This document shows positions 2,944 to 25,480 of a stretch of DNA of 64,000 nucleotides, piece by piece. Every line of letters begins with the position of its first letter. Positions within the stretch are counted from its first letter, which is position 1. The notes under the pieces are model-generated. The model saw only the letters and a list, made by a program, of their open reading frames with translations, was not told the origin of the DNA and searched no databases. A program made the translations under genes and the position numbers. The stretch covers positions 466,387-530,386 of the forward strand of contig JBBTTO010000002.1 in NCBI GenBank assembly GCA_038064195.1, read 5' to 3'. Origin of the DNA: Patescibacteria group bacterium (GTDB taxonomy: Bacteria > Patescibacteriota > Microgenomatia > Levybacterales > UBA12049).

Positions 2944-5203
2944 AAATACGAGCTGGTTTATAAAGAGTGTTATAAAGTATTTGCCGTTAGGTTTTATTAT
3001 TTTTGTTTGGTTCGCTTTCTCCAGTCCATATTTTCTGAGACACTCCGTTCCTTTTCCCACCAGGCAACTCGTCACGTTTTTTGCTCCCTGGAATCAGTAT
3101 GATAAATATGCAGGCCCTGTTAAAAATAATGCCATGCCGGATGTTGTTACGCAGATTTACCCCTGGAAGCATTTTGTCGTTAGTGAGCTTAAGGAGGGTA
3201 GAATGCCTCTATGGAATCCCAATAATTTCTCAGGTAACCCGGCACTCGCAAATTTCCAGACAGCTGTCTTTTCACCTTTTACGCTTTTATATTTTATTTT
3301 GCCTTTTATTGATGCATGGAGTTTGACAGTTCTTCTTCAACCGTTACTTGCAGGGATTTTTACGTATTTTTTGACACGTGAGATGAGAGTGAGTCGGGGA
3401 GGAGCTGTTGTCAGTGCATTAGGATTTATGTTTTCAGGCTTTATCGTCGTTTGGATGGCATACGGAACTCTCTCTATGGCCGTTGCTTTTTTGCCGCTTA
3501 TTCTTCTTAGTCTTGAAAAGTTTTTACGGAAAAATAAGATACGTTTTCTTATCCCGGCCGCACTAGCTGTGACTGTCTCTCTTTTTTCAGGTCATTTTCA
3601 GACCAGTTTGTATGTTCTCATTACATCATTTGTCTTTATTGTCTATCGCTATGCCACTGACAGAAGATTTAAAAGAATGATGATTGCCTGCTTCGCGTTA
3701 CTGAGCGGATGTGTCCTGGCCCTCCCACAACTTATTCCGACATTTGTTCTGTATACGCAATCATTTCGCAGCAGTAACGCTATCGTTGATGGGGGAATTC
3801 CGCTTTACTACCTTATAACTTCCTTCGCTCCGGATTTTTTTGGGAGCCCTGTCACGCGCAATGACTGGGTGGGGTTTTATGCCGAGCGAGCAAGTTTTAT
3901 AGGGATCATCCCTCTTCTCCTAGCAGGCTTTTCATTCTTTCGCATACGCTCTCACTATGTCCTCTTCTTTATCGGTTTGAGTCTTGTCAGTTTGGTCTTA
4001 GCACTTGATACTCCCTTACAAGTGCTTCTAAGTATGGCAGGCATTCCGGTTCTCTCCAGTAGTAATCCTACCCGGATTATTGTTTTATGGAGCTTTGCGA
4101 TGAGCATTTTGGCCGGATTTGGCTATGATTATCTCGGGGAGGTAATTTCTAAAAAAATATTTCGTCATATTCTCTATGTTGTTGTTACCGTTATTGCGAT
4201 CGTCATGTTAGCTTGGTTATCAGTCAGTGTTTTCCGTCTTTTACCCGCTGATAAAGTACATATTGCCGAGCGAAATCTTATTATTCCGACATTGATTCTT
4301 ACGCTGGGAATTTTTGCTATCTTCCTCCAGTTTTTTAACAAACGAATTCGAAAGCAGTCTTTTTTCTTATGGCTCATTATTCTCCTCATAGCCCTTGATA
4401 GTTTTCGTTTTGCCTGGAAATGGATGCCTTTTGACTCAACAGCTATTCTTTTTCCCGATGTTCCGGTGATCTCTGCCATGCAAAAATTGCAGGGTACAGG
4501 TCGGGTCTTCGGCGGCTTTGGCACGGAAGTCCAGACCTATTATGGGGTACGCTCAGTTGAAGGGTACGATCCGTTATATATCAAAAGATACGGAGAATTC
4601 ATCAAAGCTGCCACCACGGGTAGATACACAGTCCCTGATCGTTCTTTTGTAGGAGTTGACAGACAGGCAAAGTCGACTGAAAAGGTGTTGAATTTCCTGT
4701 CAGTCTCTCTTCTTTTTCAGCCGAAGTCACAACTCTTTGTTAATTATGCCTATCCTGTCTGGGGTCGGCCCGATATCTATAAAGTAGTCTACGAGGATGA
4801 TCTATTTCTGCTCTATCACAATAAGACTATGCTGCCTTTTGCCAGACTTTCCTATGTATATGAAGTTTTTACTGATCCCAAGAAGTTATTAGCCCGTTTT
4901 TATGACCCTGATTTTTCATACCAGACGACGACGCTACTTGAGGAGAATCCTTCCTTCCCAGATATGATCCAAAAGGATGCGACCGGATCTGCAGAGATTG
5001 TATCTATGAAACCAACGCGGATAAGTATTAAGGTAAATTCTACCTCCCCTGGCCTATTATTTCTCCCCACACCCTATTACCCCAACTGGCATGCGACAGT
5101 AAACGGAGAAGCTACTCAGATATATCAGGCGGACTATGCTTTTCAAGCCATAAAAATACCGAAAGGAAAATCAGATGTTATTTTTTCTTACTCTTATTTT
5201 TGA
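2909..5203 (+). CDS. YfhO-family polytopic membrane protein (GT-C-like, lipid-linked sugar dependent glycosylation)
   Basis: 764 aa. Contains PLWNPNNFSGNPALANFQTAVFSPF, a YfhO signature. Multi-TM N-terminal two-thirds plus a large C-terminal extracytoplasmic domain. Paralog of 6561..8795. Confidence 0.65.
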   Translation: MSRSLFMKSSNKNTSWFIKSVIKYLPLGFIIFVWFAFSSPYFLRHSVPFPTRQLVTFFAPWNQYDKYAGPVKNNAMPDVVTQIYPWKHFVVSELKEGRMPLWNPNNFSGNPALANFQTAVFSPFTLLYFILPFIDAWSLTVLLQPLLAGIFTYFLTREMRVSRGGAVVSALGFMFSGFIVVWMAYGTLSMAVAFLPLILLSLEKFLRKNKIRFLIPAALAVTVSLFSGHFQTSLYVLITSFVFIVYRYATDRRFKRMMIACFALLSGCVLALPQLIPTFVLYTQSFRSSNAIVDGGIPLYYLITSFAPDFFGSPVTRNDWVGFYAERASFIGIIPLLLAGFSFFRIRSHYVLFFIGLSLVSLVLALDTPLQVLLSMAGIPVLSSSNPTRIIVLWSFAMSILAGFGYDYLGEVISKKIFRHILYVVVTVIAIVMLAWLSVSVFRLLPADKVHIAERNLIIPTLILTLGIFAIFLQFFNKRIRKQSFFLWLIILLIALDSFRFAWKWMPFDSTAILFPDVPVISAMQKLQGTGRVFGGFGTEVQTYYGVRSVEGYDPLYIKRYGEFIKAATTGRYTVPDRSFVGVDRQAKSTEKVLNFLSVSLLFQPKSQLFVNYAYPVWGRPDIYKVVYEDDLFLLYHNKTMLPFARLSYVYEVFTDPKKLLARFYDPDFSYQTTTLLEENPSFPDMIQKDATGSAEIVSMKPTRISIKVNSTSPGLLFLPTPYYPNWHATVNGEATQIYQADYAFQAIKIPKGKSDVIFSYSYF

Positions 5204-5487: not shown

Positions 5488-6564
5488 ATGAAGATCGGAA
5501 TCTATGATCCGTACCTCGATACACTCTCAGGCGGGGAGAAGTATATGCTCTCAATTGCTTTGTGTTTGCAGGATGACCACGAGGTAGTGATTTTTTGGGA
5601 TAAAGCAAAAGAGCAGGAGATCCGTTCCAAAGCTAAAGAAAGGTTCGGTTTTGATCTTGAAAAGATTGCGTTTGCACCATCACTCTTTTCTAAAAGTGTT
5701 AGCTTTTTGACTCGCTACAACAAAAGTAAAGACTACGATCTCCTGTTCTATCTCAGTGACGGGAGCCTGCCCGTAGTTGCCTGCGACCTTATCGTCCATT
5801 TCCAGTCTCCTATGCTTTGGCTTAAAGGGCGTTCGCTTAAAAATCGTTTGAAGATGAGACGGATTAAAACTGTCATTTGTAATTCAAACTTCACCAAATC
5901 CTATGTAGATAAGATCTTCGGGATTGAAAGTAAGATCGTGTATCCGCCTGTCTCGATTCAAGGACGCTATCAACCCACCAAAAAAGAGCGGATCATCCTT
6001 AACGCCGGACGCTTCGGCATCAACTGGGCCGGTTCGAGTTTTAAGAAGCAGGATATTTTGGCCGAAGCTTTTGCCAGGCTTTATACCGAGGGGCTCAAAG
6101 GTTGGAAGCTGGTTTTTGTTATGAATGTTAAAGATGACGCGTTGTCGGCAGTTGACGATCTCAAAAATAAGTATAAAGATACACCTATCGAATTCGTTCT
6201 CAATCCTAACAATCGCGATCTGTGGAAGTGGTATGAGAAAGCTACGTTTTATTGGCACGCGGCGGGTTTTGCTGAGGACGTAACGACTCATCCGGATCGG
6301 GCCGAACACTTCGGCATGACGACAGTTGAAGCAATGGGAGTCGGTGCTGTTCCGCTTGTAGTTGGTGCCGGCGGACAAAAAGAGATAGTTGAGGATCAAA
6401 AGAACGGAAGACTCTGGAATACAATTGATGAATTAATAAGGTTCACTAAGGAGCTTATTCTAGACGATAAAAAGAGAGAGCTTCTCGTTCAGGAGGCAGT
6501 TAAATCATCAGATAGCTACTCCCTCGAGAGTTTCAATAAAAGTATTAAAGACCTTATTACATGA
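5488..6564 (+). CDS. GT4 (GT-B) glycosyltransferase
   Basis: C-terminal EHFGMTTVEAMGVGAVPLV is the E-X7-E motif of retaining GT4 enzymes. Confidence 0.85.
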   Translation: MKIGIYDPYLDTLSGGEKYMLSIALCLQDDHEVVIFWDKAKEQEIRSKAKERFGFDLEKIAFAPSLFSKSVSFLTRYNKSKDYDLLFYLSDGSLPVVACDLIVHFQSPMLWLKGRSLKNRLKMRRIKTVICNSNFTKSYVDKIFGIESKIVYPPVSIQGRYQPTKKERIILNAGRFGINWAGSSFKKQDILAEAFARLYTEGLKGWKLVFVMNVKDDALSAVDDLKNKYKDTPIEFVLNPNNRDLWKWYEKATFYWHAAGFAEDVTTHPDRAEHFGMTTVEAMGVGAVPLVVGAGGQKEIVEDQKNGRLWNTIDELIRFTKELILDDKKRELLVQEAVKSSDSYSLESFNKSIKDLIT

Positions 6565-8795
6565 ACAAAAAAGATCTTTTGAGTCTGGGCCTAGTACTTT
6601 TTGCCATTCTTCTTTTTTTTCGCGGTTTTTTTATTCAGGGAAGAGTTCCTATCCCGACAGATACGTTAGTAAATTTATTCCATCCTTTCAGAGATTATTA
6701 TGCTAAAGACTATCCCAGGGGAATTCCTTATAAGAACTTTTTGCTTGCTGATCCGGTGACTCAGCAAATCCCCTGGAAATCCCTGTCGATATCTCAGATG
6801 AGTAGGGGGCAGCTGCCGCTTTGGAACCCGTATCAGATGGCAGGCTATCCTCTGCTTGCTAATATCCAGTCTTCCCCCTTTTATCCGTTAAATATTTTGC
6901 TTTTTATAAGTCCGTTTATTTTAAGTTGGTCGGTTTTTATCTTACTTCAGCAAATTCTGGCGGCCTTCTTTATGTATTTGTTTCTGCGGAATCTAAAACT
7001 CGAAAGGTTGTCAGCAAGTCTTGGTTCGTTGAGTTTCGCATTTTGCGGATTTTTTATTGCCTGGTTGGAATGGGGGACTATTGTGCATACTGCTCTTTGG
7101 CTGCCGCTTATTTTACTCTGTGTTGATAAAATCCTTTCTGATAAAAGATATCGCTGGAGCGGAATTTTTATTTTTGCTGTCTTGTCTTCATTCCTGGCAG
7201 GACACTTGCAGACTTTTATTTATACGTGCGGTGTTACATCTTTATACTTTTTATATAGGTTTGTTGAGAGTAGATATAACCGACAATTTTTTTCCCGTTT
7301 TGTACTTTCGGGTTTGGCAGTGATTCTTATAAGTTTGCCGATTCTTGTTCCTCAGCTTCAGCTAATTTCCCTTTCAGCTCGGAATATCGATCAAAGCTGG
7401 CAGCAGGCGGGGTGGTTTATTCCTGTTTCTCAGGCGATTCAATTTATCGCGCCTGACTTTTTTGGCAATCCTGCTACTGGTAATTATTTCGGGGTCTGGA
7501 ACTACGGCGAATTCATCGGTTACATCGGCATTTTCCCTCTTCTGCTTGCTTTCTATGCACTTTTACGTCGTAAAAGTAATGATACCTATTTTTGGGCAGC
7601 ACTCGCAGCTATGAGTGTCTTACTTGCATTTCAGACACCGCTTGCCAAGCTTCCATATGAGTTGGGAATACCGTTTTTTTCCTCTACCCAGCCTACACGC
7701 TTGATTTTTGTGGCTGATTTTGCTTTATCAGTTCTGGCTGCGTTCGGACTTGAGAGATTACTCAAAACAAAAAGCAAAGTATTTCTTCCGCAAATTATTA
7801 TCATCTTATTTTTGCTATTTGGAGTAGGTTATGGCTTTATGCAGCTGCAAACTCGACAGATTTCAGTTACGAATTGGCAGGTCACTACACACAACCTGAT
7901 TCTGCCTCTATTTCTTGTGACAGTTGCCTGTGGCGGATTGTTCGTCAGTTCTCTTCTGGCTACGAAAAAAAGAACAGTCGTTGTAGCTTTTATGTTTGTT
8001 ATGACGATAGGTGATTTGCTTATTTTTGCCGGTAAATTTACTCCTTTTGCCAACTCCTCATATTTTTATCCGACAACCAAAGCAATAGCTTTTCTTAAAG
8101 AGCAGCCGGGTCAATTCAGAATTATGACGACTGATCGTCGAATCCTTCATCCCAATATTGCCACTCAGTATCGCCTCCAGAGTATAGATGGCTACGATCC
8201 TCTCTATCTTCTTAAGTATGGTGAAATGATGGCCGCCGTCGGAAGAGGAAAGCCCGATATTATCCCACCCTTCGGCTATTTCCGTATCCTAACCCCCGGG
8301 AGTTTTGACTCACCCCTTATTGACCTTTTAGGAGTGCGGTATATTCTGAGTCTGACAGAGATTCACAGTCCGCACGTAAAGCAGGTTTATTCAGAGGGAG
8401 AGACCAGAGTATATGAGAACGCCAGAGCGTTTCCGCGGGCATTTTTTGTAACGTCTGTCAGCCCGGCAGCCAATAATCAACAGGCAATCAATTTTCTCTT
8501 CAACTCCGCAGTTGATTTACATACAATAGCCATAGTTGAGGCCGGGGAATCAGAGTTGCCTACTCAATTTTCCCCTGGGAAAGTCACGATTGATTCCTAT
8601 ACTGAGAACAGTATCACTCTGACAGCACGCACTGACGGGAAAGCGTTTATGGTTTTGACCGATACTTTCTATCCGACCTGGAAGGCAACCGTTGACGGAA
8701 AGCCGACTGTTGTATACCGGACAGACTATAATTTCAGAGGCGTTGTTGTACCGGGAGGGGAACATAGGATAGTATTTAAAGATACACTTTTTTAA
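6561..8795 (+). CDS. YfhO-family polytopic membrane protein, paralog of 2909..5203
   Basis: 744 aa. LPLWNPYQMAGYPLLANIQSSPFYPL aligns with the motif in 2909..5203. Same architecture. ATGA overlap with the upstream GT4. Confidence 0.65.
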   Translation: MNKKDLLSLGLVLFAILLFFRGFFIQGRVPIPTDTLVNLFHPFRDYYAKDYPRGIPYKNFLLADPVTQQIPWKSLSISQMSRGQLPLWNPYQMAGYPLLANIQSSPFYPLNILLFISPFILSWSVFILLQQILAAFFMYLFLRNLKLERLSASLGSLSFAFCGFFIAWLEWGTIVHTALWLPLILLCVDKILSDKRYRWSGIFIFAVLSSFLAGHLQTFIYTCGVTSLYFLYRFVESRYNRQFFSRFVLSGLAVILISLPILVPQLQLISLSARNIDQSWQQAGWFIPVSQAIQFIAPDFFGNPATGNYFGVWNYGEFIGYIGIFPLLLAFYALLRRKSNDTYFWAALAAMSVLLAFQTPLAKLPYELGIPFFSSTQPTRLIFVADFALSVLAAFGLERLLKTKSKVFLPQIIIILFLLFGVGYGFMQLQTRQISVTNWQVTTHNLILPLFLVTVACGGLFVSSLLATKKRTVVVAFMFVMTIGDLLIFAGKFTPFANSSYFYPTTKAIAFLKEQPGQFRIMTTDRRILHPNIATQYRLQSIDGYDPLYLLKYGEMMAAVGRGKPDIIPPFGYFRILTPGSFDSPLIDLLGVRYILSLTEIHSPHVKQVYSEGETRVYENARAFPRAFFVTSVSPAANNQQAINFLFNSAVDLHTIAIVEAGESELPTQFSPGKVTIDSYTENSITLTARTDGKAFMVLTDTFYPTWKATVDGKPTVVYRTDYNFRGVVVPGGEHRIVFKDTLF

Positions 8796-8796
8796 C

Positions 8797-9753
8797 ATGA
8801 CAATAAGTATTGTTATTCCCGATTACAATAATGGTGATTTAATTGCCGAAAATCTGCCTTTGTATATCCCTATTCTGCAAACCTTTGCCAAAGCTCACAA
8901 AACATCCGTACAGATTATCATTAATGACGACGGTTCGACAGACGGGAGTTGGGAACGGTTAGTAAAAGCTACTGAGAAGAAATATGAGCTTGTTGATTTC
9001 ACCCTGCTCAGTAACGGTCGCAATATCGGTTTTTCGACCACTGTCAATCGCGGCGTTGCTCGTGCCCGGGGCGAGATAGTAGTACTCCTGAATGCTGATG
9101 TTGTTCCTGATAAAGGTTTTTTGGAACCTCTGCTTGATCATTTTTCAGATCGAGATGTGTTTGCCGTAGGCTGTATGGATAAGAGTATTGAAGCAGACGG
9201 GACTACCGTTCTTCGCGGGCGGGGGGTAGGTAAATGGGTGAGAGGCTTTCTTCTCCATTCCCGTGGAGAGCCTGACAGGCAGGATACGCTTTGGGTGAGT
9301 GGAGGAAGCGGAGCTTTTCGTAAAAGTATTTGGGACAAATTAGGAGGGCTCAACGAAATGATGAACAGATTTTACTGGGAAGATATTGATCTGTCTTACA
9401 GAGCCCAAAAAGCCGGTTATAAAGTGTTATTTGAGCCCAAAAGTACCGTTGTTCATGAACATGAAGAGGGTTCAATCAAAAAAACAGCCAAACCCATGAG
9501 TGTGAGGATCACCTCATATCGTAATCAATTTTACTTTGTCTGGGTTAACATCACGGATTTCTCCTTTATCATGTCTCATCTTTTCTGGCTGCCCCTCCAG
9601 CTCGCTCTCGCAACACTTCATGGCGATACTGCTTTTCTTAAGGGTTTTTTGCTAGCCCTTTTTCATGTTCCGCAAGTGCTTATCAGGCGTCAAAAAGTTC
9701 AGTCACTGACAAAAATTTCAGATCACAGTATCCTCGCTCATTTTAGCGCGTGA
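8797..9753 (+). CDS. GT2 glycosyltransferase with C-terminal hydrophobic segment
   Basis: ISIVIPDYNNGDLI...IINDDGSTDGS, LLNADVVPD and FYWEDIDLSYRAQKAGY are GT-A motifs. C-terminal FSFIMSHLFWLPLQLALATL is a hydrophobic helix. Confidence 0.8.
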   Translation: MTISIVIPDYNNGDLIAENLPLYIPILQTFAKAHKTSVQIIINDDGSTDGSWERLVKATEKKYELVDFTLLSNGRNIGFSTTVNRGVARARGEIVVLLNADVVPDKGFLEPLLDHFSDRDVFAVGCMDKSIEADGTTVLRGRGVGKWVRGFLLHSRGEPDRQDTLWVSGGSGAFRKSIWDKLGGLNEMMNRFYWEDIDLSYRAQKAGYKVLFEPKSTVVHEHEEGSIKKTAKPMSVRITSYRNQFYFVWVNITDFSFIMSHLFWLPLQLALATLHGDTAFLKGFLLALFHVPQVLIRRQKVQSLTKISDHSILAHFSA

Positions 9754-9809: not shown

Positions 9810-10526
9810 ATGAAATTATCAATTATTGTACCGGTCTATAATGAAGAAAAAACGATTAAAGCAGTACTCGAAAGACTAAGCCGGCTTGATTTGGGTAAAA
9901 CCAAAAAAGAAATTATCATCATCAATGACGCCTCATCTGATCTTACCGATAAAGAAATAAAAAAAGTTCTGCCTAAAAATCCTGACTTTGTCTACATCAC
10001 GCATGACGTCAACAAAGGCAAAGGGGCTGCTGTTAATACCGGGATTGCTACATCCAAAGGAGACTATATCATCATTCAGGATGCCGATTTGGAATATGAT
10101 CCGGGGGATATTCCCCGGCTCCTTGAGCCTATTCTTGACGGCCGTGCGAGAGTAGTTTTCGGAACTCGCTTGAAAAGACTCCCCAACTTCAGTCGGGACG
10201 AACGAAATATGCGTTTTTTTATTCAGTATATGGGTAACAAAGGTCTGAGTTTATTGACGAGTATTCTTTACGGGCAGTGGATCACCGACATGGAGACCTG
10301 TTACAAGCTTTTTCCTAAAGACAGTCTAAAAGGCAAAAAAATTCATGCAAAAGGATTTGAATTTGAACCCGAAATTACAGCGCTGCTTATAAAGAGTGGC
10401 TATAAGATCACCGAGCTGCCGATTTCGACTAATCCCCGGGGGTTTGAGGAGGGCAAAAAACTTCGCCCTGTTCATGACGGAGTTAAAGCCTTTATTGCAC
10501 TTTTGAAATTTCGTTTTAAAAATTAA
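9810..10526 (+). CDS. Polyprenol-phosphate sugar synthase, DPM1/Ppm1-like GT2 (soluble, no C-terminal TM)
   Basis: [14 protein letters not shown]...IIINDASSD and [11 protein letters not shown] motifs match dolichol/polyprenol-phosphate mannose synthase-type GT2. It sits directly upstream of two PMT/ArnT-like GT-C genes. Confidence 0.7.
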
Positions 10527-10534
10527 TTTGTATT

Positions 10535-12211
10535 GTGTACAGGCTGATCGATATAATGAAAAAAGCTATTAGGAAGGAATCCCTTCTTTTACTCCTGATT
10601 ATCTCGATTGCGACAGTGCTGCGTTTCTGGCATTTGGGGATTAATCCACCGTCGCTGACCTGGGATGAAGTTGCCTGGGGTTACAATGCGTACTCAATCG
10701 GTATTGACGGCAAAGATGAATTCGGCCGCTTTTTGCCCTACGACTATTTAGAGTCATTCGGGGATTTCAAGCCTCCGCTTTATGCCTATCTGGATGTCCT
10801 CCCGGTAAAAGTTTTCGGACTTAACGAGTTTGCTACCCGCTTCCCATCAAGTCTTTTTGGTGTCCTGAGTGTCCTTGTCACTTATTTTCTGGTTAAGCGT
10901 CTTTTTTACAATTCAAAAAATAAAGAGATGTATGCCTTAGCCGCTACAGGTGTTTTAGCTATCTCTCCCTGGCATATCATGCTCTCGCGTGCTGCGTTTG
11001 AGGCGAATGTGGCATCATTTTTTATAATGACTGGTATCTGGCTATTCTTAGTTGCGGTTGAAGAGCGTCCTTGGCTTCTCCTTCTTAGTGCGATCAGTTT
11101 TGTCTTATCCCTTTATACTTTTAACAGTACACGGATAGTTGCTCCGTTACTTGTGATTTTTCTCGGATTAGTTTTTTACAAAAAATTACTCAACGTTAAA
11201 AAACAGGCAATTGCCGCAGTCATTATCGGACTGTTATTACTGGCTCCGATTCTTGGCTTTCTGCGTTCTCCGCAAGCAGCCTTGCGCTTTCAGGAGGTTA
11301 ATATTTTTACCGACAGCAATATAGTCAAAACTGCCAACAGACAAATTGCCAACGACCATAACGCCTGGTGGTCAAAGATCATTCACAACCGCCGTGTTGG
11401 CTATGCTGAGTCTTTCCTTAAGCATTATTTCGATAATCTCAGCCCAGAATTTTTATTTGTTCACGGCGACGGAAATTTCAAATTTTCAACTCAGAATGTC
11501 GGGCAGCTTTATCTCTGGGAATTACCTTTCTTTATAGCCGGAATTCTTTTCCTGATTAAGAGAAGGGAAGGGTACTGGTGGCTCATCCCTATTTGGCTCC
11601 TTTTAGCGATTATCCCTGCAGCAACGGCTCGTGAGACGCCGCATGCTCTCAGAATTGAGTCATCACTACCTACTTTCCAGATACTGACCGGCTATGGCGC
11701 AAGTCTTTTCCTTTTTTATCTCATATCTTTACCCCGAAAAAAAATAATGCTCAAAAAAGTACTACTCGGAGTTTTTTCTGTTGCAGTTTTGGGTAACATT
11801 ACTTTTTTTCTCCACTCACTTTTTATCCAGTACCCCCGGGAAAGTTCGGGTGAATGGCAGTATGGATATAAGGATGCAATTGCTTATGCCAAATCGGTTG
11901 AGGGGGATTATGATCAGATACGTCTGACCGATGAGTTAGGTCGTCCGTATATATATACGCTTTTTTATCTCAGGATTACACCTCAGGAGTTTCGTTCTAC
12001 ACAACTGGTGACACGGGATAGCTTTGGTTTTGTCCATGTTAACGGCTTTGCTAAGTACCGCTTCGGAAGTGATGAAATCAACAGGAATCCTGAGGAAGGT
12101 AAAAGGACTCTTATTATTGAGATCCCGCGAAAGGTTCCAAGTGGCGTTCGAATTCTTAAGGAATTCCCGTTGTTAAATGGAGATACGGCACTTGAGGCCT
12201 ATACATTTTAA
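10535..12211 (+). CDS. Polytopic GT-C glycosyltransferase, PMT/ArnT (GT39/GT83) family
   Basis: WDEVAWGYNAYSIGIDGKDEFGRFLP motif. Multi-TM. Paralog of 1273 and 12213. The true start could be the second ATG at 10556. Confidence 0.7.
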   Translation: MYRLIDIMKKAIRKESLLLLLIISIATVLRFWHLGINPPSLTWDEVAWGYNAYSIGIDGKDEFGRFLPYDYLESFGDFKPPLYAYLDVLPVKVFGLNEFATRFPSSLFGVLSVLVTYFLVKRLFYNSKNKEMYALAATGVLAISPWHIMLSRAAFEANVASFFIMTGIWLFLVAVEERPWLLLLSAISFVLSLYTFNSTRIVAPLLVIFLGLVFYKKLLNVKKQAIAAVIIGLLLLAPILGFLRSPQAALRFQEVNIFTDSNIVKTANRQIANDHNAWWSKIIHNRRVGYAESFLKHYFDNLSPEFLFVHGDGNFKFSTQNVGQLYLWELPFFIAGILFLIKRREGYWWLIPIWLLLAIIPAATARETPHALRIESSLPTFQILTGYGASLFLFYLISLPRKKIMLKKVLLGVFSVAVLGNITFFLHSLFIQYPRESSGEWQYGYKDAIAYAKSVEGDYDQIRLTDELGRPYIYTLFYLRITPQEFRSTQLVTRDSFGFVHVNGFAKYRFGSDEINRNPEEGKRTLIIEIPRKVPSGVRILKEFPLLNGDTALEAYTF

Positions 12212-12212
12212 T

Positions 12213-13877
12213 ATGCTTAGAAGATATCGACTACTTTTTCTGATCGGGATTATATTTTTTGCAGCTGTTTTACGGTTATACCAGCTGGGAGTTACTCCCG
12301 TGTCGCCTGATTGGGATGAGGTGGCACTCGGATACAACGCTTACTCAATTATCCAGACAGGCAAAGACGAGTACGGAGCCTTTTTGCCGGTCGTTCTCAG
12401 GTCTTACGATGATTACAAGCCTGCACTCTATACCTATCTTGCCATTCCTCCGATTTTCGTCTTTGGCTTGACTGTGTTTGCTACCCGGTTGCCCAGTGCT
12501 ATTTTTGGTATTCTGACGATATTTATCACCTATCTTTTGATCCGAGAGGTATTTAAAAAAGAAAGTTTGGCTCTTATTACGAGTTTTCTGTTGGCGATAT
12601 CTCCCTGGCACATCCAGTTCTCTCGTGTTGCTTTTGAGACCAATATCGGTCTGTCACTGAATATCTTGACTGCCTATTTATTTGTTAAGGGTCTAAAAAA
12701 GCCGTGGGTACTTATACTGAGTGCTTTTTCTGCAGGACTGGCAATTTATGCGTACCAGAGTGAAAAAGTTTTTACTCCGTTGTTTGTTCTGGTACTCGTA
12801 CTTATTTTTGCCCGTCAGCTTTTCAGTTTGCCTAAAAAATACCTGCTGACAGCTGCTATTACCGGAATACTGGTTGTAACACCGATGTTTGTTTATATTA
12901 CTTCTCACAAAGAAGCGCTTCTCAGGGCTCAAGCCACACTTGCTTTCTCAGATCAGACGAGCTTTCTCAAAAACCAGATCAAGCGTGTTAATTATGATCA
13001 CCTCCGTAAAGATTATCTGGGGCTTGTTCTTGATAATCGACGCGTTCTTTTTCTTTTGACAGGGGTGGGGGGCTATCTCTCTCATTATGATCTCAACTGG
13101 CTATTTTTTAAAGGCGATTTGACCAGACATCATGCACCGGGTATGGGGCTGATGTATCTCTGGGAGCTCCCGTTTTTGCTTATCGGTCTCTATGCATTGT
13201 TTTTTTCCAGGCTCGAATCCAAGGAGAAGAGAGGGAAGTATCTTTTCTTTGCCTGGTTTTTGTTGGCCCCTGTCCCCGCAGCTTTTACCAGTGACCTTCC
13301 GCATGCGGTCAGGACTCTGAACTTCCTTCCGACATTTCAACTCTTTACTGCCTGGGGTATTTTATCTGCAGTACAAATGATCAGGGTATATAAAGAAAGA
13401 AAAGGGACTATATTTTCAAAATTATTCCCCGTTTTTGTTCTTTGCTTTTTGTTCTTTGCGGTTGGCAACTTTGCTTATTATCTTAATCAATATTTTGTGC
13501 AGCAAAATTATTTTTATTCGAGAGATTGGCAATACGGCTACGCTGATACGGTTGACTATATCAAGAAAGTTGATGCTGATTATGACAAAATTGTCGTGAG
13601 TAATAAGCAGCCACTTGATGATTCGTATATGTTCTTTTTATTTTATCTCAAATATCCGCCCGAAAAATATCAACGTGAGTCTCTTTCCAAATCAGGCGGA
13701 TATGATATACGACATAGCTTCGGTAAATTTGAATTCCGGCCTGTGCACTGGGATACAGAAGTAAAAAAGGATACTATTTTGTATGTTGAAGGAGTTTCTG
13801 AGTATGGGGGAGGAAATATAGTCAAACCGGTTGATTTCCTTGACGGCACTCCGGCCATCAAAATAGTACAAGGATGA
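12213..13877 (+). CDS. Polytopic GT-C glycosyltransferase, PMT/ArnT family, tandem paralog
   Basis: WDEVALGYNAYSIIQTGKDEYGAFLP motif. I placed the start at the first ATG, 1 nt after the upstream stop; the ORF-track TTG extension at 12177 overlaps the upstream gene. Confidence 0.7.
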   Translation: MLRRYRLLFLIGIIFFAAVLRLYQLGVTPVSPDWDEVALGYNAYSIIQTGKDEYGAFLPVVLRSYDDYKPALYTYLAIPPIFVFGLTVFATRLPSAIFGILTIFITYLLIREVFKKESLALITSFLLAISPWHIQFSRVAFETNIGLSLNILTAYLFVKGLKKPWVLILSAFSAGLAIYAYQSEKVFTPLFVLVLVLIFARQLFSLPKKYLLTAAITGILVVTPMFVYITSHKEALLRAQATLAFSDQTSFLKNQIKRVNYDHLRKDYLGLVLDNRRVLFLLTGVGGYLSHYDLNWLFFKGDLTRHHAPGMGLMYLWELPFLLIGLYALFFSRLESKEKRGKYLFFAWFLLAPVPAAFTSDLPHAVRTLNFLPTFQLFTAWGILSAVQMIRVYKERKGTIFSKLFPVFVLCFLFFAVGNFAYYLNQYFVQQNYFYSRDWQYGYADTVDYIKKVDADYDKIVVSNKQPLDDSYMFFLFYLKYPPEKYQRESLSKSGGYDIRHSFGKFEFRPVHWDTEVKKDTILYVEGVSEYGGGNIVKPVDFLDGTPAIKIVQG

Positions 13878-15514
13878 AAAAAAACGTCTGGCTCATTGCT
13901 CTTATTCTTTTGTCTCTCCTGCCGCTTTTCCCGTTAATTCATCCCGGGCTGCCGGTTACTCATGACGGGAAAGATCATGTAGCGCGTATTGCCAACTTTT
14001 TTCAAAATCTGCAGGAGGGAGTTCTGATACCTCGTTGGGCTGGCAATCTCAACTGGGGATACGGGCACCCTGTGCTGATGTTTTTGTATCCGCTTCCCTC
14101 ATATATTGCCTCATTTTTTAGAGTACTCGGATTTTCTTTCATTGATAGTACCAAGCTCGTTTTTGCAAGCTCGTATGTCCTCAGCGGTATCACGATGTAT
14201 ATCTGGCTTAAAAGCTTTCTTAGGCGGGAGTCAGCTTTTCTGGGGAGTATACTTTATCTGTTTGCATCATATCGTTTTATTGATCTCTACGTCAGAGGTG
14301 CACTTGGTGAACATGTTGCTTTCATATTTCCGCCACTCATTTGTTATTTCCTTTATCACATGACCACAAAGCGTATGAGCAAATACGCTCTTTTTGCCGG
14401 CATCTCAATAGCCGGACTGATTTTGGCGCATGATGCGATCAGTATTATCTTTTTACCCTTTATTGTTATCTATGCGTGTTTTTTGGTCTTTTTACAAAAT
14501 AAAAAAAAGAAAGCAGCTATTGAGGCTGCATCAAGTGTAGTTTTGGGTTTTGTCCTCTCCGGCTTTTTCTGGATACCTGCGTTTTTTGAAGGCAAATACA
14601 CACTTCGTGATATTGTTGCATCTCACGACTTCTCACATTCCTTATTTTCACTTAGCAAATATATTTACAGTCCCTGGAGTTTTGGTATTTCAGGACAGTT
14701 CAGCCTGCAAATCGGTATTATTCAATGGGTGATCGTGTTGCTGACTAGCAGTTTGATGATAATCTATCGGAAGAAAATTCAGAAAAAAGACAGGCTTCTT
14801 TTGTCTGTTCTTATTGTTTTTTTTATTCTTACAGTCGGTATTATGACGCCGGTCTCACAACCGTTCTGGGATCACGTTAGTTTGATTCAAAAATTCCAGT
14901 TCCCCTGGAGATTTCTGTCTCTTGCCGTTTTTATAACAAGTGTGATCGCAGCTGTTGCATCAAATCTTCTTCCGGACAAATTCAGGAAAGCTACCGTTAT
15001 ACTTGCTGTAATTTCGGTAATGGTGACGATTCCTTATTGGAAGGTGAACGGTTATTATATGCGGCCCGACAGTTTTTTTTCAGGAATTTATGCCGGGACA
15101 ACCGATACGGGTGAAAGCTCGCCACGATGGTCGGTTCGCTTCATGGAGCAACAACCTCAAAGCCATCTTGAGTTTATCAGCGGTAAAGGCAGGATTGAAG
15201 AACGAGAACATATGTCGACTTTTCATCATTACACGGTTGAGGCAGGAACTCAGGTGCAACTACGTGAAAACACGGTTTATTTTCCCGGCTGGAGAGTTTT
15301 GCTTAACAACTCACCCTTTCCTGTCGAGTTTCAAGACACACATAATAGAGGTGTTATGACTTTCACCATACCGGCAGGGAAGCATGATGTAGTAGTTGCT
15401 TTTGCTGAAACAAAGCTGCGCTTCCTGGCAGATGCTATCAGTCTTTTTGGATTGCTCATCCTGGCTATCTCATTTATACTAATGAGGACCACATTATGGA
15501 AACGATTTCAGTAG
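13874..15514 (+). CDS. Polytopic membrane protein, YfhO/PTPS-related-like putative GT-C
   Basis: N-terminal loop THDGKDHVARIANF has an HD..H..R pattern that I recall from YfhO/PTPS-related membrane proteins. About 12 helices plus a C-terminal soluble domain. Family assignment is tentative. Confidence 0.45.
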   Translation: MKKNVWLIALILLSLLPLFPLIHPGLPVTHDGKDHVARIANFFQNLQEGVLIPRWAGNLNWGYGHPVLMFLYPLPSYIASFFRVLGFSFIDSTKLVFASSYVLSGITMYIWLKSFLRRESAFLGSILYLFASYRFIDLYVRGALGEHVAFIFPPLICYFLYHMTTKRMSKYALFAGISIAGLILAHDAISIIFLPFIVIYACFLVFLQNKKKKAAIEAASSVVLGFVLSGFFWIPAFFEGKYTLRDIVASHDFSHSLFSLSKYIYSPWSFGISGQFSLQIGIIQWVIVLLTSSLMIIYRKKIQKKDRLLLSVLIVFFILTVGIMTPVSQPFWDHVSLIQKFQFPWRFLSLAVFITSVIAAVASNLLPDKFRKATVILAVISVMVTIPYWKVNGYYMRPDSFFSGIYAGTTDTGESSPRWSVRFMEQQPQSHLEFISGKGRIEEREHMSTFHHYTVEAGTQVQLRENTVYFPGWRVLLNNSPFPVEFQDTHNRGVMTFTIPAGKHDVVVAFAETKLRFLADAISLFGLLILAISFILMRTTLWKRFQ

Positions 15515-16272
15515 TCCTTGCGACATTTAATGAAGAAAAGAATTTAGCTGCTTGTCTTGAGTCTGTCAAAGATTTAGCTCAGGAGATTATCATCGTTGAC
15601 GGTACGTCAAAAGACAGGACAGTTGAAATAGCAAAAAGTTTTGGAGCTAAAGTCTTAGTCACCACCAATCCGCCTATTTTTCATATTAATAAGCAAAAAG
15701 CCATCGATATGGCCACCAAGGACTGGGTCCTGCAGCTTGATGCCGATGAGCGGGTTAGTCCGGAGCTTGCAAAAGAAATAAGGGAAGTTATCTCCAAAGA
15801 TCCACCATCCAAGACCGACGAACCAATTAATGGGTACTGGTTACCCCGCAAGAATTTTTTCCTCGGGCGCTTCCTCATGAAAGGCGGACAATATCCTGAC
15901 TATACCCTCAGGCTCTATCGCAAGGGCACAGGCCGCCTCCCACAGAAAGATGTTCATGAACAAGCTAGAGTTGAGGGCAAGGTAGGATATCTGACTCATC
16001 CGCTTACCCATATTGCAGATCCTGAGTTCGGGAGGTATCTGATGCGTTTTAAGAGATACACTAATTTACTGGCAGATGAATACGTGGATAAAAAAATCGG
16101 CAAAAATCCCTATACATTTAGCAAATATATGCTGGTAATGCCAACTTACTGGTTCATTCTTCAATACGGAAGGCATAAGGGATTTATGGATTCGTGGCAG
16201 GGCTTTGTTTTCTCACTTTTCTCCTCCCTTCGTTTTCCTGTCAGCTATCTTAAGTATTTGGGGAGGAAATAA
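15496..16272 (+). CDS. Small GT2 glycosyltransferase, paralog of 548..1306
   Basis: ISVVLATFNEEKNLAACLESV...IIIVDGTSKDRT and LDADER motifs. Aligns along its length with 548..1306. Confidence 0.8.
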   Translation: METISVVLATFNEEKNLAACLESVKDLAQEIIIVDGTSKDRTVEIAKSFGAKVLVTTNPPIFHINKQKAIDMATKDWVLQLDADERVSPELAKEIREVISKDPPSKTDEPINGYWLPRKNFFLGRFLMKGGQYPDYTLRLYRKGTGRLPQKDVHEQARVEGKVGYLTHPLTHIADPEFGRYLMRFKRYTNLLADEYVDKKIGKNPYTFSKYMLVMPTYWFILQYGRHKGFMDSWQGFVFSLFSSLRFPVSYLKYLGRK

Positions 16273-16367: not shown

Positions 16368-17816
16368 ATGGTTCTCTCAGGGAGTATCCCTTTTTGGTAC
16401 GATCCGGCCCGCGATTTTTTACTCGCCTGGGATAATCTCTCCAAGCTGACTCTTATCGGCCCGACGACGGGAATCCCCGGAGTATTTTACGGTCCGTACT
16501 GGGTCTGGTTTATAAGTCTTGGCCTGCTTGTCAGTAGAGACCCGCGGGTTCCGATTATGCTCGTCCAGACTATTCCCCTTACGCTCATTATTCCTTTTTT
16601 CTTCATGCGCCAAAAAGAGTTTTCCAGACTGTCTCTTCTTTCAGTATGGCTTCTTTTCATGGTCGGATACGGTATCAACTATGCTGCCATGCCGTGGAAT
16701 CCGCAGATTGCTCCTGTTTTTCTTATCCTGTTATTTTTTATTATTGCCCGGACAGAAGTTGCATCTTCCGGCCGTAGTCTGTACAAAAATGGGCTTTTGC
16801 TGGGAATATGTCTTGGCCTTTTAATGAATGTTCATATCTCCTTCGGGCTTGCGACTGTTTTGGGTACGGCTCTTTATTTTCTGTTATGTTTTGTCTTAAC
16901 AGATACGCGACTCAAAAAAAGATCTCTTTTATGGCAAAGCCTTAAAAAACAAGCGTTATTCGGTACATGTGCCATAGGTGCTTTTTTGTTGACTTTTGCT
17001 CCTTTTTTCTTATTTGAGATTCGTCATAATTTTCTTCAGACAAAAAGTATAGTTGCAGCACTATTGAGTGATCACGCTGTGGTTGGGGTTAAAGGTCTAA
17101 CAAAGCCCGATATTCTCAATCAGTTTATTGACAGATTAGCTGAATTTTTATCGCTTCCGCACGCGATCGCAATAGGTGTGGTTTTGCTACTTGGGATCGT
17201 CTTTATCAAACGGGGTAAAAAACAGACGTTTTTTTCTCAAGGGGGAAAGAGGATATTTTTTTATGCTTTGTCCATTCTTGCAAGTATTTTTACAATTTAT
17301 TTAACTTCCAAAAATCCTATCTGGGCATATCATTTTATCGGTGTGGATGTCCTTTTTATGTTTATAGTCCTGGTGCTTATAGATAAAAGTAAGATTGCAC
17401 GCTGGCTGTTTTTTATATGGATGATCTATGTGCTGGGAACGTTTGCCCTCACTTTTGCCTCCGGACTCAATCGGGATGTGCTCCGTCTTATTGATCTAAA
17501 ATCAAAAGAAGTTATTACCCAAATGATCCGTGATGATGCAGGGGCAAGAGAGTATACTGTCTTTCCGTACAATCCCGCTATTTATTCATACGAATATGCC
17601 TACCTTTTTCGCAGTCTCGCTCATAAAGAGGTGTCCTATGATCCCGGTCAGACACCAATTGGGAGTAAGCTTTCGTATGTCCTCGTTTCCTCGCTTTCTG
17701 ATCCTCTTCAGCAAGACTTCATTAACTTTAGAACGAATAATAAAATATATAGTACAACGAAGACATGGGTACGACCCGATGGTACCATTATTCTCAGACG
17801 TGAAATAAAACCATGA
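16368..17816 (+). CDS. Polytopic membrane protein, putative GT-C-type
   Basis: 482 aa and highly hydrophobic. No soluble catalytic domain recognised. The in-frame upstream peptide is also hydrophobic, so the start is uncertain. Confidence 0.4.
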   Translation: MVLSGSIPFWYDPARDFLLAWDNLSKLTLIGPTTGIPGVFYGPYWVWFISLGLLVSRDPRVPIMLVQTIPLTLIIPFFFMRQKEFSRLSLLSVWLLFMVGYGINYAAMPWNPQIAPVFLILLFFIIARTEVASSGRSLYKNGLLLGICLGLLMNVHISFGLATVLGTALYFLLCFVLTDTRLKKRSLLWQSLKKQALFGTCAIGAFLLTFAPFFLFEIRHNFLQTKSIVAALLSDHAVVGVKGLTKPDILNQFIDRLAEFLSLPHAIAIGVVLLLGIVFIKRGKKQTFFSQGGKRIFFYALSILASIFTIYLTSKNPIWAYHFIGVDVLFMFIVLVLIDKSKIARWLFFIWMIYVLGTFALTFASGLNRDVLRLIDLKSKEVITQMIRDDAGAREYTVFPYNPAIYSYEYAYLFRSLAHKEVSYDPGQTPIGSKLSYVLVSSLSDPLQQDFINFRTNNKIYSTTKTWVRPDGTIILRREIKP

Positions 17817-19411
17817 AACATTCTGCTATAACTTTCCTTAGCAACAAATGTAAAGACAGGTGGTTTTTGTCTTTACTTGTTGTTTTTGTTATTGCTGCAT
17901 GTATTCGTTTGTATGCACTGCCTTTATATATCAGTATCGGCGGAGACGATGCGCGGGATATAGCGATAGCCAAAGAGTCAATCCGTCTCCATAGCCTTCC
18001 TCGATTCGGCTCCTTCAGTTCGGCAGGGCCATTTGTTTTCGGACCTCTTTTTTATTGGGTGTTGATTCTCAGTTACATTATTTTACCGTTTACGCTTTTT
18101 GCTCCGTGGATACTGACTATCCTTGCCAGTCTATTCACGGTGATTATTATGATGGTCATCGGTAAAAAACTCGGGGGGACAGGACTTGGCATAACTCTTG
18201 GAGTCTTAACGGCTTTTTCTCCTCAGTTGATCACGCGATCAGTAGTTGTCGGACAGCATACGTATGTCGGAGTCTTTACCGCTCTTGTCATTCTCTTCTT
18301 GATTCTTCTTTGGCAAAAGCCCTCCAAGCTCTATTCTTTTCTCCTTGGAGTTATGATCGGAGTTGCTATAAATATGCATTACCAAGCTCTTAATCTTTTT
18401 GTCGTTATTCCTTTTGTGTTTTTTATCCCGAGGGTAGCGTTTACAAAGAAAATTATTTTTGTTGCCTTACTCGTCATAGGCATTGTAATTCCGTCAGTAC
18501 CACTTCTTACATGGGATGCGCGTCAGCAGTTTGCTAATATGCGTAATATTCTTGACTACTTTCTGATTGCTCAGTACAGGATATATGTTCCCAATAGTTG
18601 GAAAATTTTTCTGTTTTCGTTCCTTCCCAATTTTTGGTCATATGTCAGCGGCGGATGGTATGGCTTAGGTTTAACTGCCATGGCTATAGCGGGAATCGGC
18701 GCATTGTTACATGTCAAAAAAAATGCTTTACGGTTGACTACCTGTCTTTATATAATTGTTGTGGTTTTTCTCCTCATCAACAGATACTACAAAGGCGAAC
18801 GATCAGAGGGATACTTACTCTATGTGACTCCTTTTATCCTGATCATTACCGGTATAGGGATACTGGAGATCTCATCTTTCATAGCCGGTTTTTTTAGAAA
18901 AAAGCCTATATCCCGTTATATTCAGTATGGCATGATTACTTTTTTCCTTGTTGTTTTTATGACCGGTAGTTTGTCGCGGACTCTCGCACCTCTTAAAGGA
19001 CACCATGCCCTATCAGATATCAAAAAGACCGTTACCGCTCTCAAAAACGCCAGACCGGGTAAAACATTCGCTCTCTACGGTCAGCATTTTAATAATTATA
19101 ATCAAACGACAGCCATGAGCGCCTTTATGGCACAGGAGCATCTTGAAGATACTCTGGGAATTCCGATCGGTATGTTTTGTCCGGGGGCCTATAAAAAAAA
19201 TAAGTTTCCGGTAATCACGAGTACTGTCGAAAATTGTAAAATAGATGATTTGTCAAAATTGAACAATTCAGCGCTCAAAAAAGACGGTTGGGTACTTATC
19301 AGCCAACAGAGCCTTTATGATGATCTTATCAGTCACTGGGAGACAAATCGTCTAACCTCAACATTCTCGTTCGTCGATTTTGTAAAGTCACGTCTCACAC
19401 ATAGTCAGTGA
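17813..19411 (+). CDS. Polytopic membrane protein, putative GT-C (PMT_2-like)
   Basis: 532 aa. N-terminal loop GGDDARDIAIAKE follows the first helix. Many helices. ATGA overlap with the upstream gene. Confidence 0.4.
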   Translation: MKHSAITFLSNKCKDRWFLSLLVVFVIAACIRLYALPLYISIGGDDARDIAIAKESIRLHSLPRFGSFSSAGPFVFGPLFYWVLILSYIILPFTLFAPWILTILASLFTVIIMMVIGKKLGGTGLGITLGVLTAFSPQLITRSVVVGQHTYVGVFTALVILFLILLWQKPSKLYSFLLGVMIGVAINMHYQALNLFVVIPFVFFIPRVAFTKKIIFVALLVIGIVIPSVPLLTWDARQQFANMRNILDYFLIAQYRIYVPNSWKIFLFSFLPNFWSYVSGGWYGLGLTAMAIAGIGALLHVKKNALRLTTCLYIIVVVFLLINRYYKGERSEGYLLYVTPFILIITGIGILEISSFIAGFFRKKPISRYIQYGMITFFLVVFMTGSLSRTLAPLKGHHALSDIKKTVTALKNARPGKTFALYGQHFNNYNQTTAMSAFMAQEHLEDTLGIPIGMFCPGAYKKNKFPVITSTVENCKIDDLSKLNNSALKKDGWVLISQQSLYDDLISHWETNRLTSTFSFVDFVKSRLTHSQ

Positions 19412-19439: not shown

Positions 19440-20414
19440 ATGAAGATACTTGTAACAGGCGGTGCGGGCTATATCGGAAGCTTTATGGTAAAGCGTCTGC
19501 TTGATGACGGTTATGAGGTGGTTGTGCTTGACAGCATGGAGCGGGGCTACGTTGAAGCACTTGACCCGCGAGCCACCTTTGTTAAAGGCACGACGTTGGA
19601 TAAGGTATTCCTCCAGCTGGTTTTTGCAGAACACTCCTTTGATGCAGTTTTTCATTTTGCAGCCTATATTTCAGTTGCCGAATCAGTTGATCGTCCGGGC
19701 CTTTATTTTGCTAACAATGTTTTCGGTACTCTTAATCTCTTGGAGCAAATGGTTAAGCATAAGGTAAGCCGTATTATTTTCTCCTCCACTGCTGCCGTCT
19801 ATGGTAACCCTCAGCAGATCCCGATCCCCGAGGATCATCCCAAAGTCCCTGAGAATCCTTATGGTGAGAGTAAGCTGATGGTTGAGCATATACTTTCCTG
19901 GTTTCAAAGATCGCATAATATCCGTTATGTTGCTTTTCGCTATTTTAATGCCTCAGGTGCGGCTTTGGATGGGAGTATGGGGGAGAGGCACGAGCCCGAG
20001 ACCCACATCATCCCCAACGCTATTAAAGCGCTCCTTAATAAGAAAACTTTCACCCTTTATGGTAACGACTACGATACCCCGGATCATACGTGTGTGAGAG
20101 ATTATATTCATGTTCTGGATCTGGTTGAAGCTCATATAGTCGGTCTCAATAAAATTCTGCAAGTTGAGGGTGGACACACCTATAATGTAGGGACGGGAAA
20201 AGGTTTTTCTAATAAAGAGATCATTGATATGATTGAGGAAGTGGCCGGAGAGCAGCTCGTTATCGAGCAAGCGCCACGTCGGCCGGGAGATGCTGACGAA
20301 TTGACTGCTGATCCGACCAGGATTAAAAATGATCTCGGGTTTGTCCCGAGTTACTCTGATCTTAAAACTATTATTTCTTCTGCCTGGAAATGGCATAGTC
20401 AGCGTCATCCTTGA
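19440..20414 (+). CDS. galE: UDP-glucose 4-epimerase
   Basis: N-terminal GGAGYIGS Rossmann motif and catalytic YGESK (YxxxK). 324 aa, typical for GalE. Confidence 0.85.
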   Translation: MKILVTGGAGYIGSFMVKRLLDDGYEVVVLDSMERGYVEALDPRATFVKGTTLDKVFLQLVFAEHSFDAVFHFAAYISVAESVDRPGLYFANNVFGTLNLLEQMVKHKVSRIIFSSTAAVYGNPQQIPIPEDHPKVPENPYGESKLMVEHILSWFQRSHNIRYVAFRYFNASGAALDGSMGERHEPETHIIPNAIKALLNKKTFTLYGNDYDTPDHTCVRDYIHVLDLVEAHIVGLNKILQVEGGHTYNVGTGKGFSNKEIIDMIEEVAGEQLVIEQAPRRPGDADELTADPTRIKNDLGFVPSYSDLKTIISSAWKWHSQRHP

Positions 20415-25479: not shown

Positions 25480-25480
25480 C

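Follow-up and report, generated by a model that had tools for sequence, protein, structure and literature searches.

GT-C glycosyltransferases of the PMT_2 and YfhO types that are paired with family 2 glycosyltransferase (GT2) synthases decorate lipoteichoic acid, wall teichoic acid and cell-wall polysaccharides (PMC8035078; PMC5836110). In a related arrangement, arrays of GT-C enzymes that depend on polyprenyl-phosphate-mannose build lipomannan (LM) and lipoarabinomannan (LAM), and PpgS, which supplies polyprenyl-phosphate-N-acetylgalactosamine, acts with Rv3779 to decorate arabinogalactan (PMC3485146). Here, we describe a set of glycosyltransferase genes from a Levybacterales member of the Patescibacteria (GenBank assembly GCA_038064195.1, contig JBBTTO010000002.1). 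The genes lie at positions 9810–15514 of a stretch of 64,000 nucleotides, which we refer to as the window and to which all positions below refer. The original prediction for this region was a protein O-mannosylation module, in which a DPM1/Ppm1-like polyprenyl-phosphate sugar synthase serves two tandem transferases. The interpretation that we favour, with moderate confidence, is that a Levybacteria-wide battery, of which the region is the core, carries out glycosylation at the outer face of the membrane using a polyprenyl-phosphate-sugar donor, most likely with a surface glycopolymer or lipoglycan as the acceptor.

The four open reading frames (ORFs) of the region were confirmed by Pfam searches, all on the + strand and with unchanged coordinates. 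They encode a GT2 of 238 amino acids (9810–10526; PF00535, E = 8e-37; no predicted transmembrane helix), a PMT_2/PMT-like GT-C enzyme of 558 amino acids that we call A (10535–12211; PMT_2, E = 1.4e-10, 42 bits; PMT, E = 2.1e-9, 38 bits), its paralog B of 566 amino acids (12177–13877; PMT_2, E = 1.9e-12, 48 bits; PMT, E = 4.3e-9, 37 bits) and a PTPS_related/YfhO-type GT-C enzyme of 546 amino acids (13874–15514; PTPS_related, E = 8e-14, 51 bits; YfhO weak). The start of B is more likely to be the ATG at 12213, 1 nt past the stop codon of A (12209–12211); the B orthologs are 549–553 amino acids long. The tandem pair of transferases stands, but the description understates the locus. A third member of the A/B family is encoded at 1273–2943 (+ strand; 31–33% identical to A and B over about 520 residues, with PMT and PMT_2 matches), and the first 19.4 kb of the window contain eight GT-C-type genes (1273, 2909, 6561, A, B, 13874, 16368 and 17813). 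This run is interleaved with GT2 genes at 548, 8797, 9810 and 15496 and with a GT4 gene at 5488, and ends at a gene for the UDP-glucose 4-epimerase GalE (19440–20414, + strand; TIGR01179, 395.7 bits against a cut-off of 262.3).

Relatives of A were sought in one genome per species. At least 528 were found, the best 80 of which are 51–75% identical to A and come almost entirely from Levybacteria metagenome-assembled genomes or from bins with placeholder names; close homologs of the battery genes are found in the Patescibacteria and specifically in the Levybacteria/Levyibacteriota. We note that many contigs carrying a typical Levybacteria locus are labelled 'uncultured Gammaproteobacteria bacterium', and one 'Limnocylindrales', which look like placeholder or wrong labels. 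The synteny counts given here and below refer to 46 species-level loci with full flanks of ±10 kb. A is directly followed by B in all 46, usually overlapping or abutting it, with a spacing of mostly −4 to +6 nt. In related loci the A orthologs are 58–69% and the B orthologs 47–66% identical, and as A and B each have their own orthologs the duplication must be old, with both copies kept. The 9810-type GT2 is present in 40 loci and the PTPS_related enzyme in 32. A YfhO-family GT-C (6561–8795, + strand; PF09586, 88 bits) is a conserved member with an ortholog 44–59% identical in 37 loci. A 318-amino-acid GT2 with one C-terminal transmembrane helix (8797–9753, + strand; PF00535 and PF13641), which is encoded just upstream of the 238-amino-acid GT2, is found in 40 loci, and the PMT_2-type GT-C at 17813–19411 (+ strand; PF13231, 33 bits) in 23. 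GalE accompanies A and B in 33–35 loci, and no other sugar-nucleotide enzyme travels with the battery. The number of GT-C genes per 21.6 kb has a median of seven and a range of 5–9, while a single synthase of the DPMS-like (9810) or GtrB-like (40598) type is present in 35 loci. Loci differ in the number of extra GT-C paralogs that lie between the GT2 and A or downstream of B. As this gene order is kept across more than 40 species-level genomes, the battery probably makes a core surface structure.

The best match of the 9810 GT2 in the Protein Data Bank (PDB) is the dolichyl-phosphate-mannose synthase (DPMS) of Pyrococcus furiosus (PfDPMS; PDB entry 5mlz), with E = 1.8e-15 over residues 1–216, including the region of the interface helix. 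ArnC (3e-12) and GtrB (1e-10) rank after it and match the N-terminal half only. Mapping the published PfDPMS contacts (PMC5526996) onto a pairwise alignment and a family alignment indicates that the 9810 family keeps the catalytic and phosphate-handling set, namely Tyr10, Glu12, Asp39, Asp89-Ala-Asp91, Arg117, Arg202 and Lys208. In the 9810 protein itself the DAD motif is Asp91-Ala-Asp93, Arg120 is the equivalent of Arg117, and the equivalents of the acceptor-loop residues Arg202 and Lys208 are present. The protein thus combines the features of a polyprenyl- or dolichyl-phosphate sugar synthase: a GT-A domain with DxD, an acceptor-side arginine and the arginine and lysine of a mobile acceptor loop. 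The DPM1/Ppm1-type assignment in the original prediction therefore holds for the nearest solved relative and the catalytic residues, but not for the contacts to mannose and guanine. Four PfDPMS contact residues are exchanged throughout the 9810 family (Leu69 to Lys, Gln93 to Glu, His94 to Tyr and Lys178 to Glu). In PfDPMS, Leu69 stacks on guanine, His94 contacts O3 of mannose and Lys178 contacts O4 and O6 (PMC5526996). The family signature reads DADLEY rather than the DADLQH of DPMS enzymes, which sets it apart from dolichyl- and polyprenyl-phosphate-mannose synthases. From these comparisons we describe the enzyme as a soluble GT2 that resembles polyprenyl-phosphate sugar synthases, with no sugar specificity assigned.

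Over their full length (about 560 residues; E = 8e-101) enzymes A and B share 36% identity, which bears out their paralogy. The loop motif WDEVA(W/L)GYNAYSI..G(K)DE.G.FLP is present in both, as LTWDEVAWGYNAYSIGIDGKDEFGRFLP and PDWDEVALGYNAYSIIQTGKDEYGAFLP, as had been proposed; the corresponding loop of the third paralog (1273) reads RDEVALGYNAYSI. The acidic pair Asp44-Glu45 of A, which corresponds to Asp47-Glu48 of B, does not vary between A, B and the third paralog. All of the orthologs retrieved have it too, and 'WDE.ALGY' is retained in the B orthologs. A second, near-invariant motif, '[ED]WQYGY' (residues 440–445 of A and 450–455 of B), lies about five residues past the last transmembrane helix, at the start of a C-terminal outer domain. 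It is likewise retained in the B orthologs and is restricted to A and B, being absent from the third paralog and from the other PMT_2 genes. An AlphaFold2 model of A (pLDDT 84, pTM 0.86) contains about 11 transmembrane helices, arranged as seven helices, an outer loop of 85 residues and four further helices, followed by a C-terminal outer domain of about 100 residues, and not the 12 helices first proposed. Foldseek confirmed that the model is GT-C-like. Its matches were headed by ArnT (E = 5.6e-8), followed by AglB, STT3 and PglB (about 1e-6) and then Pmt4 (2e-5); the structures of Emb, Aft and PimE enzymes are farther from A than those of STT3, PMT and ArnT. Since A is only 12–16% identical to every solved GT-C enzyme, a tree against PMT, ArnT and oligosaccharyltransferase sequences would be unreliable, and the comparison of folds was used instead. 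A and B are thus an old, always-adjacent pair with two members that both have the appearance of active enzymes, and which may work one after the other or as a heteromer.

In the original scheme, polyprenyl-phosphate-mannose is made by the Ppm1-like enzyme, and the duplicated transferases then use it for the PMT-like O-mannosylation (or for an O-hexosylation of another kind) of proteins that are secreted or belong to the S-layer or to pili. Several observations speak for it besides the kinship of the 9810 GT2 with a dolichyl-phosphate-mannose synthase. The Pfam profiles named in the original prediction are matched above their gathering scores, PF00535 by the 9810 protein and both PF02366 and PF13231 by A and B. 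The 'WDEVAWG' loop resembles the 'DE' context of the PMTs, in which this motif is essential, the layout of 7 + 4 helices and the low r.m.s. difference from Pmt4 are PMT-like, and the eukaryotic PMT1/PMT2 heterodimer (PDB entry 6p25) would fit an obligate A/B pair. Other observations speak against the scheme. The PF02366 matches reach only 37–38 bits with partial coverage, and PMT_2 scores are equal or higher. No PMT_4TMC domain (PF16192) was detected in A or B at E ≤ 10, and no PMT chain in the PDB was matched by sequence or profile searches. STT3B and ArnT are structurally as close to A as Pmt4 is, and on the question posed with the original prediction, ArnT-like or PMT-like clustering, the comparison favours neither side. 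PMTs consist of seven transmembrane helices, a loop and PMT_4TMC (PMC12331936), an architecture of which the globular C-terminal outer domain of A and B is not part, and a β-hairpin like the one to which peptide recognition is ascribed in MtPMT is not predicted in external loop 4 (EL4) of the model. The DE loop had been taken as evidence for a PMT; as the motif is found throughout the GT-C clan (Asp55/Glu56 in ArnT and Asp77/Glu78 in Pmt1; PMC7801869), it does not discriminate. The conserved loop-1 residues of PMTs follow the pattern V-H-x-P..K, as in Val158, His159, Pro161 and Lys164 of the Streptomyces coelicolor enzyme (PMC8698208); the loop-1 stretches here are 'DFKPPLYAY' in A and 'DYKPALYTY' in B.

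The supply of mannose is the other element of the O-mannosylation scheme. The ManC-like mannose-1-phosphate guanylyltransferase gene that had been cited as its source is real (52620–53705, + strand; NTP_transferase and ManC_GMP_beta-helix in Pfam), and its presence in the window counts in favour; its TIGR01479 score of 227 bits falls under the cut-off of 373 because the protein is without the isomerase half. The link to the battery is weak, however: the gene lies 37 kb downstream, beside a priming phosphoglycosyl transferase and GT4 genes, and was found within ±10 kb of A and B in none of the 46 loci, compared with the 33–35 that have GalE. The mannose and guanine contacts replaced in the 9810 GT2 also argue against mannose, and such a scheme would need far fewer GT-C enzymes than the median of seven per locus. 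Of the Ppm1 + PMT logic, the sequence matches and the fold thus uphold a cytoplasmic synthase-like GT2 beside GT-C enzymes with a loop-1 Asp-Glu pair, but not membership in the PMT family, mannose or a protein acceptor. We therefore regard O-mannosylation as unlikely, although it deserves to be kept in mind. These genes carry database labels such as 'glycosyltransferase family 39' or 'dolichol-phosphate mannosyltransferase', from which protein O-mannosylation cannot be concluded.

The prominence of ArnT among the matches raises the question of whether A and B might instead modify the head group of a membrane lipid, in which case the charge or other properties of the membrane would be tuned and no glycan would be built. 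Single-sequence searches of the PDB with A, B and the PTPS_related protein returned nothing at E ≤ 1–10, whereas a profile of the A/B family matched one chain only, ArnT from Cupriavidus metallidurans, and this match is marginal (E = 8e-4 over 163 residues). The profile aligns the loop-1 lysine region noted above with the 'KPP' region of ArnT, and both proteins have a soluble C-terminal outer domain. On the other hand, hhalign of the A/B profile against Escherichia coli ArnT gave a probability of 26% over 100 columns, a value of little weight given the shallow profiles (Neff 2.5). Neither significant full-length similarity nor nearby genes for 4-amino-4-deoxy-L-arabinose (Ara4N), the marks of a GT83 ArnT, were found for A and B: no homolog of ArnA, ArnB or ArnD reached its cut-off in the window, where the sole DegT-family enzyme is RfbH-like. 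It is also hard to reconcile many distinct GT-C enzymes with the decoration of a lipid head group. We consider this explanation very unlikely.

Catalytic subunits of oligosaccharyltransferases (OSTs) carry a WWDYG motif, which the position and pattern of '[ED]WQYGY' recall. Together with the ranking of AglB, STT3 and PglB close behind ArnT in Foldseek, and with the priming phosphoglycosyl transferase, GT4 and Wzx-like genes in the window, this raises the possibility that A and B transfer a lipid-diphosphate-linked glycan en bloc, from the Wzx-type pathway of the island to a protein or other acceptor. The resemblance extends only to xWxYG, with Gln in place of the Asp of WWD, so that A and B lack WWDxG, and no STT3 match was obtained in Pfam at E ≤ 10. 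Synteny points away from a lipid diphosphate as well, since within ±10 kb of A and B the priming transferase is found in none of the 46 loci and Wzx in eight, compared with 40 for the monosaccharide-type synthase. En bloc transfer by A and B accordingly seems to us quite improbable. A bolder idea, which we put forward as speculative and consider improbable, is that A and B form a heteromeric GT-C machine specific to the Candidate Phyla Radiation (CPR) and marked by '[ED]WQYGY'. It would stand at the centre of an operon-encoded, outer-face line that builds a lipoglycan-like or wall-linked polymer or that carries out OST-like protein glycosylation.

The PTPS_related protein at 13874 exceeds the Pfam gathering score and folds as a GT-C enzyme, its outer domain preceding the last transmembrane helix. 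This domain is a β-sandwich, which the C-terminal helix anchors in the membrane. The HD..H..R loop described for this protein was located as 'THDGKDHVAR'; the exact motif, HD..DH..R, is one residue longer than stated. Comparison of the A/B profile with the PTPS_related profile and with the protein at 16368 by hhalign gave weak or insignificant results, to which the same shallow profiles (Neff 2.5) lend little weight. Overlapping the end of the PTPS_related gene is a gene for a soluble GT2 of 258 amino acids (15496–16272, + strand), the best PDB matches of which are GmaR (9e-11) and SunS (9e-9). This is the GT2 most tightly linked to A and B, occurring in 45 of the 46 loci and so ranking above the DPMS-like GT2 with 40; a paralog is encoded at 548–1306.

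Returning to the interpretation that we favour, the 9810 GT2 would act on the cytoplasmic face, moving one hexose or N-acetylhexosamine from a nucleotide sugar onto polyprenyl phosphate. Like the soluble enzymes human DPM1, Ppm1-D2, PpgS and GacI, it probably relies on a membrane partner for docking. The lipid-linked sugar would then be flipped across the membrane, and on the outer face the GT-C enzymes (A, B, the PTPS_related 13874 protein and the five other GT-C-type proteins encoded between 1273 and 19411) would each pass it to a cell-envelope acceptor by means of the loop-1 Asp-Glu, or His-Asp, motif. In this way a polymer could be built or decorated stepwise outside the membrane, in the manner of mycobacterial LM, LAM and arabinogalactan or of Gram-positive teichoic acids and cell-wall polysaccharides. 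A glycopolymer or lipoglycan is favoured over Ser/Thr sites on proteins on account of the median of seven different GT-C enzymes per synthase and of the neighbouring Wzx-type polysaccharide locus. As the rest of the window consists of this locus (the priming transferase at 53708, GT4 and GT2 genes and the Wzx-like gene at 21485), the glycan acceptor is plausibly made next door. The co-conserved GalE makes UDP-glucose or UDP-galactose, or their N-acetyl forms, at least as likely a donor as GDP-mannose.

Several points weigh against this interpretation. The 9810 GT2 passes no NCBIfam equivalog cut-off, the best being AglJ with 117 bits against 325, and the PpgS model gives 50 bits against a cut-off of 370; a non-lipid acceptor is therefore conceivable for this enzyme. 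It has no transmembrane helix of its own, and neither a GtrA-type flippase nor a small membrane partner for it was found in the window, which is tightly packed, with a largest gap of 284 nt. Soluble synthases that need such partners are known, for example PpgS, which acts with Rv3632, and Ppm1-D2, which acts with D1 (PMC3485146). When the locus is examined as a multi-component system, the synthase-like GT2 and the GT-C enzymes are syntenic, a GtrA-type gene is absent and the sole flippase candidate is the Wzx-like gene at 21485 (PF01943, 38 bits). The relatives of the 15496-type GT2, GmaR and SunS, glycosylate proteins or peptides in the cytoplasm. The PMT_2-type enzymes TMTC and TMEM260 are protein O-mannosyltransferases, which also speaks for the O-mannosylation scheme, and according to the Gründling laboratory the acceptor is not readable from homology for YfhO and GtlB homologs (PMC5836110).

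The remaining GT-C-type genes of the battery are a YfhO-family gene at 2909–5203 (+ strand; PF09586, 90 bits) and a gene at 16368–17816 (+ strand) for a polytopic membrane protein that is probably another GT-C enzyme. The latter has about nine hydrophobic segments and no Pfam match at E ≤ 10, and some of its homologs in related loci have weak PMT_2 matches. We note that this protein starts with 'YDPARD' with no transmembrane helix ahead of it and that a gap of 95 nt lies upstream, and so its start codon or first helix may be mis-assigned. A further PMT_2-type GT-C, a distant paralog that is 24–28% identical to A and B, is encoded on the − strand at 57004–58827, outside the island, flanked by recO and by the gene for a class II aminoacyl-tRNA synthetase.

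The window as a whole is one long glycan island, nearly all on the + strand. Downstream of the battery, in a stretch of lower G+C content, are the Wzx-like gene, many GT2 and GT4 genes and genes for sugar-modifying enzymes. The G+C fraction is 0.34–0.39 in 22000–40000 compared with 0.40–0.43 in the flanks. Besides a Wzx-like gene and genes of the GT2 and GT4 families, this low-G+C cassette contains genes for an AsnB-like amidotransferase, an RfbH-like aminotransferase, a dehydratase and two methyltransferases, and it has the look of a variable, O-antigen-like block that was possibly acquired horizontally. Two polytopic proteins without a Pfam match at E ≤ 10 are encoded near the dehydratase and a DUF2079 membrane protein (34800–37067, 755 amino acids; 38005–39165, 386 amino acids). 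The DUF2079 protein (PF09852, 112 bits) and a GtrB/ArnC-type GT2 (40598–41533) form a second candidate donor/transferase pair at 39143–41533 (+ strand). This GT2 matches ArnC (E = 2e-44) and GtrB (6e-36) over its full length and has C-terminal transmembrane helices, which would anchor it in the membrane. At 41599–43262 an ORF of 177 amino acids with only the N-terminal GT4 domain directly precedes a complete GT4 of 377 amino acids, and may be a remnant or part of a split gene. Further downstream are a large Wzy_C-like protein, another PMT_2 gene, GT4 genes, ManC and the priming phosphoglycosyl transferase. The Wzy_C-like protein (44705–47788; 1027 amino acids, about 20 hydrophobic segments) has a sub-threshold Wzy_C score of 29.3 bits against a cut-off of 31.7 and may act as a polymerase, as a ligase or, like PglL, as an O-oligosaccharyltransferase.

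CPR bacteria, or Patescibacteria, make up a large and mostly uncultured share of bacterial diversity and live attached to other cells, and very little is known of their surface chemistry. The present genome, of roughly 1 Mb, devotes about 20 kb to seven to nine membrane glycosyltransferases, and knowledge of the sugar and the acceptor would offer a first way into the envelope of the Levybacteria. Public databases already contain the genes themselves, with names that are generic or misleading. Searches of the literature on CPR, Patescibacteria and Microgenomates in combination with GT39, O-mannosylation, GT-C, YfhO and glycosylation found no description of these arrays; one paper on a Peregrinibacteria genome notes only multiple annotations of 'dolichol-phosphate mannosyltransferase'. 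The class of mechanism is known, while the operon-like row of 5–9 GT-C genes, the A/B pair, invariant and marked by a motif of its own, and the conservation across the Levybacteria appear to be undescribed.

Comparison with described systems indicates both shared and divergent features. The ArnC/ArnT system likewise consists of a GT2 and a GT-C enzyme with a C-terminal outer domain, ArnT is the best profile and Foldseek match, and a true ArnC/GtrB-type GT2 is present elsewhere in the window (40598). The similarity is marginal, however, and no genes for Ara4N synthesis were found in the window. Actinobacterial Ppm1 and Pmt (GT39) resemble the locus in combining a GT2 with a GT-C enzyme that has a loop-1 DE pair, in the layout of 7 + 4 helices and in the weak PF02366 match. 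The battery differs in having a C-terminal globular domain and in lacking PMT_4TMC, the EL4 hairpin, the DPMS mannose contacts and a syntenic ManC.

The Gram-positive systems CsbB/YfhO, GtlA/GtlB, GacI/GacJ/GacL and GtsA-C combine a GT2 that makes a C55-P-monosaccharide with an outer transferase of the PMT_2 or YfhO type (PMC8035078), and both types of GT-C enzyme occur here. The GacI-type variant has a soluble GT2 without transmembrane helices (PMC8035078), as does the 9810 locus. These systems use one GT2 and one GT-C enzyme, whereas a median of seven GT-C enzymes accompany one DPMS-like GT2 in the battery, near which no GtrA-type flippase is encoded and the host of which is an uncultured CPR bacterium. 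In the mycobacterial and corynebacterial arrays (PimE, MptA-C, Emb and Aft, and PpgS with Rv3779) one synthase feeds many GT-C enzymes that act on envelope glycans, as proposed here. PpgS, a short and soluble GT2, has a small membrane protein as its partner (PMC3485146), and EmbA-EmbB is a heteromeric GT-C pair. No orthology with these enzymes is detectable (as seen in the low PpgS score), and their genes are scattered, in contrast to the single operon-like row found here. If A and B do form the heteromeric assembly line suggested above, it would be an independently evolved counterpart of the mycobacterial LM, LAM and arabinogalactan GT-C network, in monoderm bacteria that are ultra-small and have genomes of about 1 Mb.

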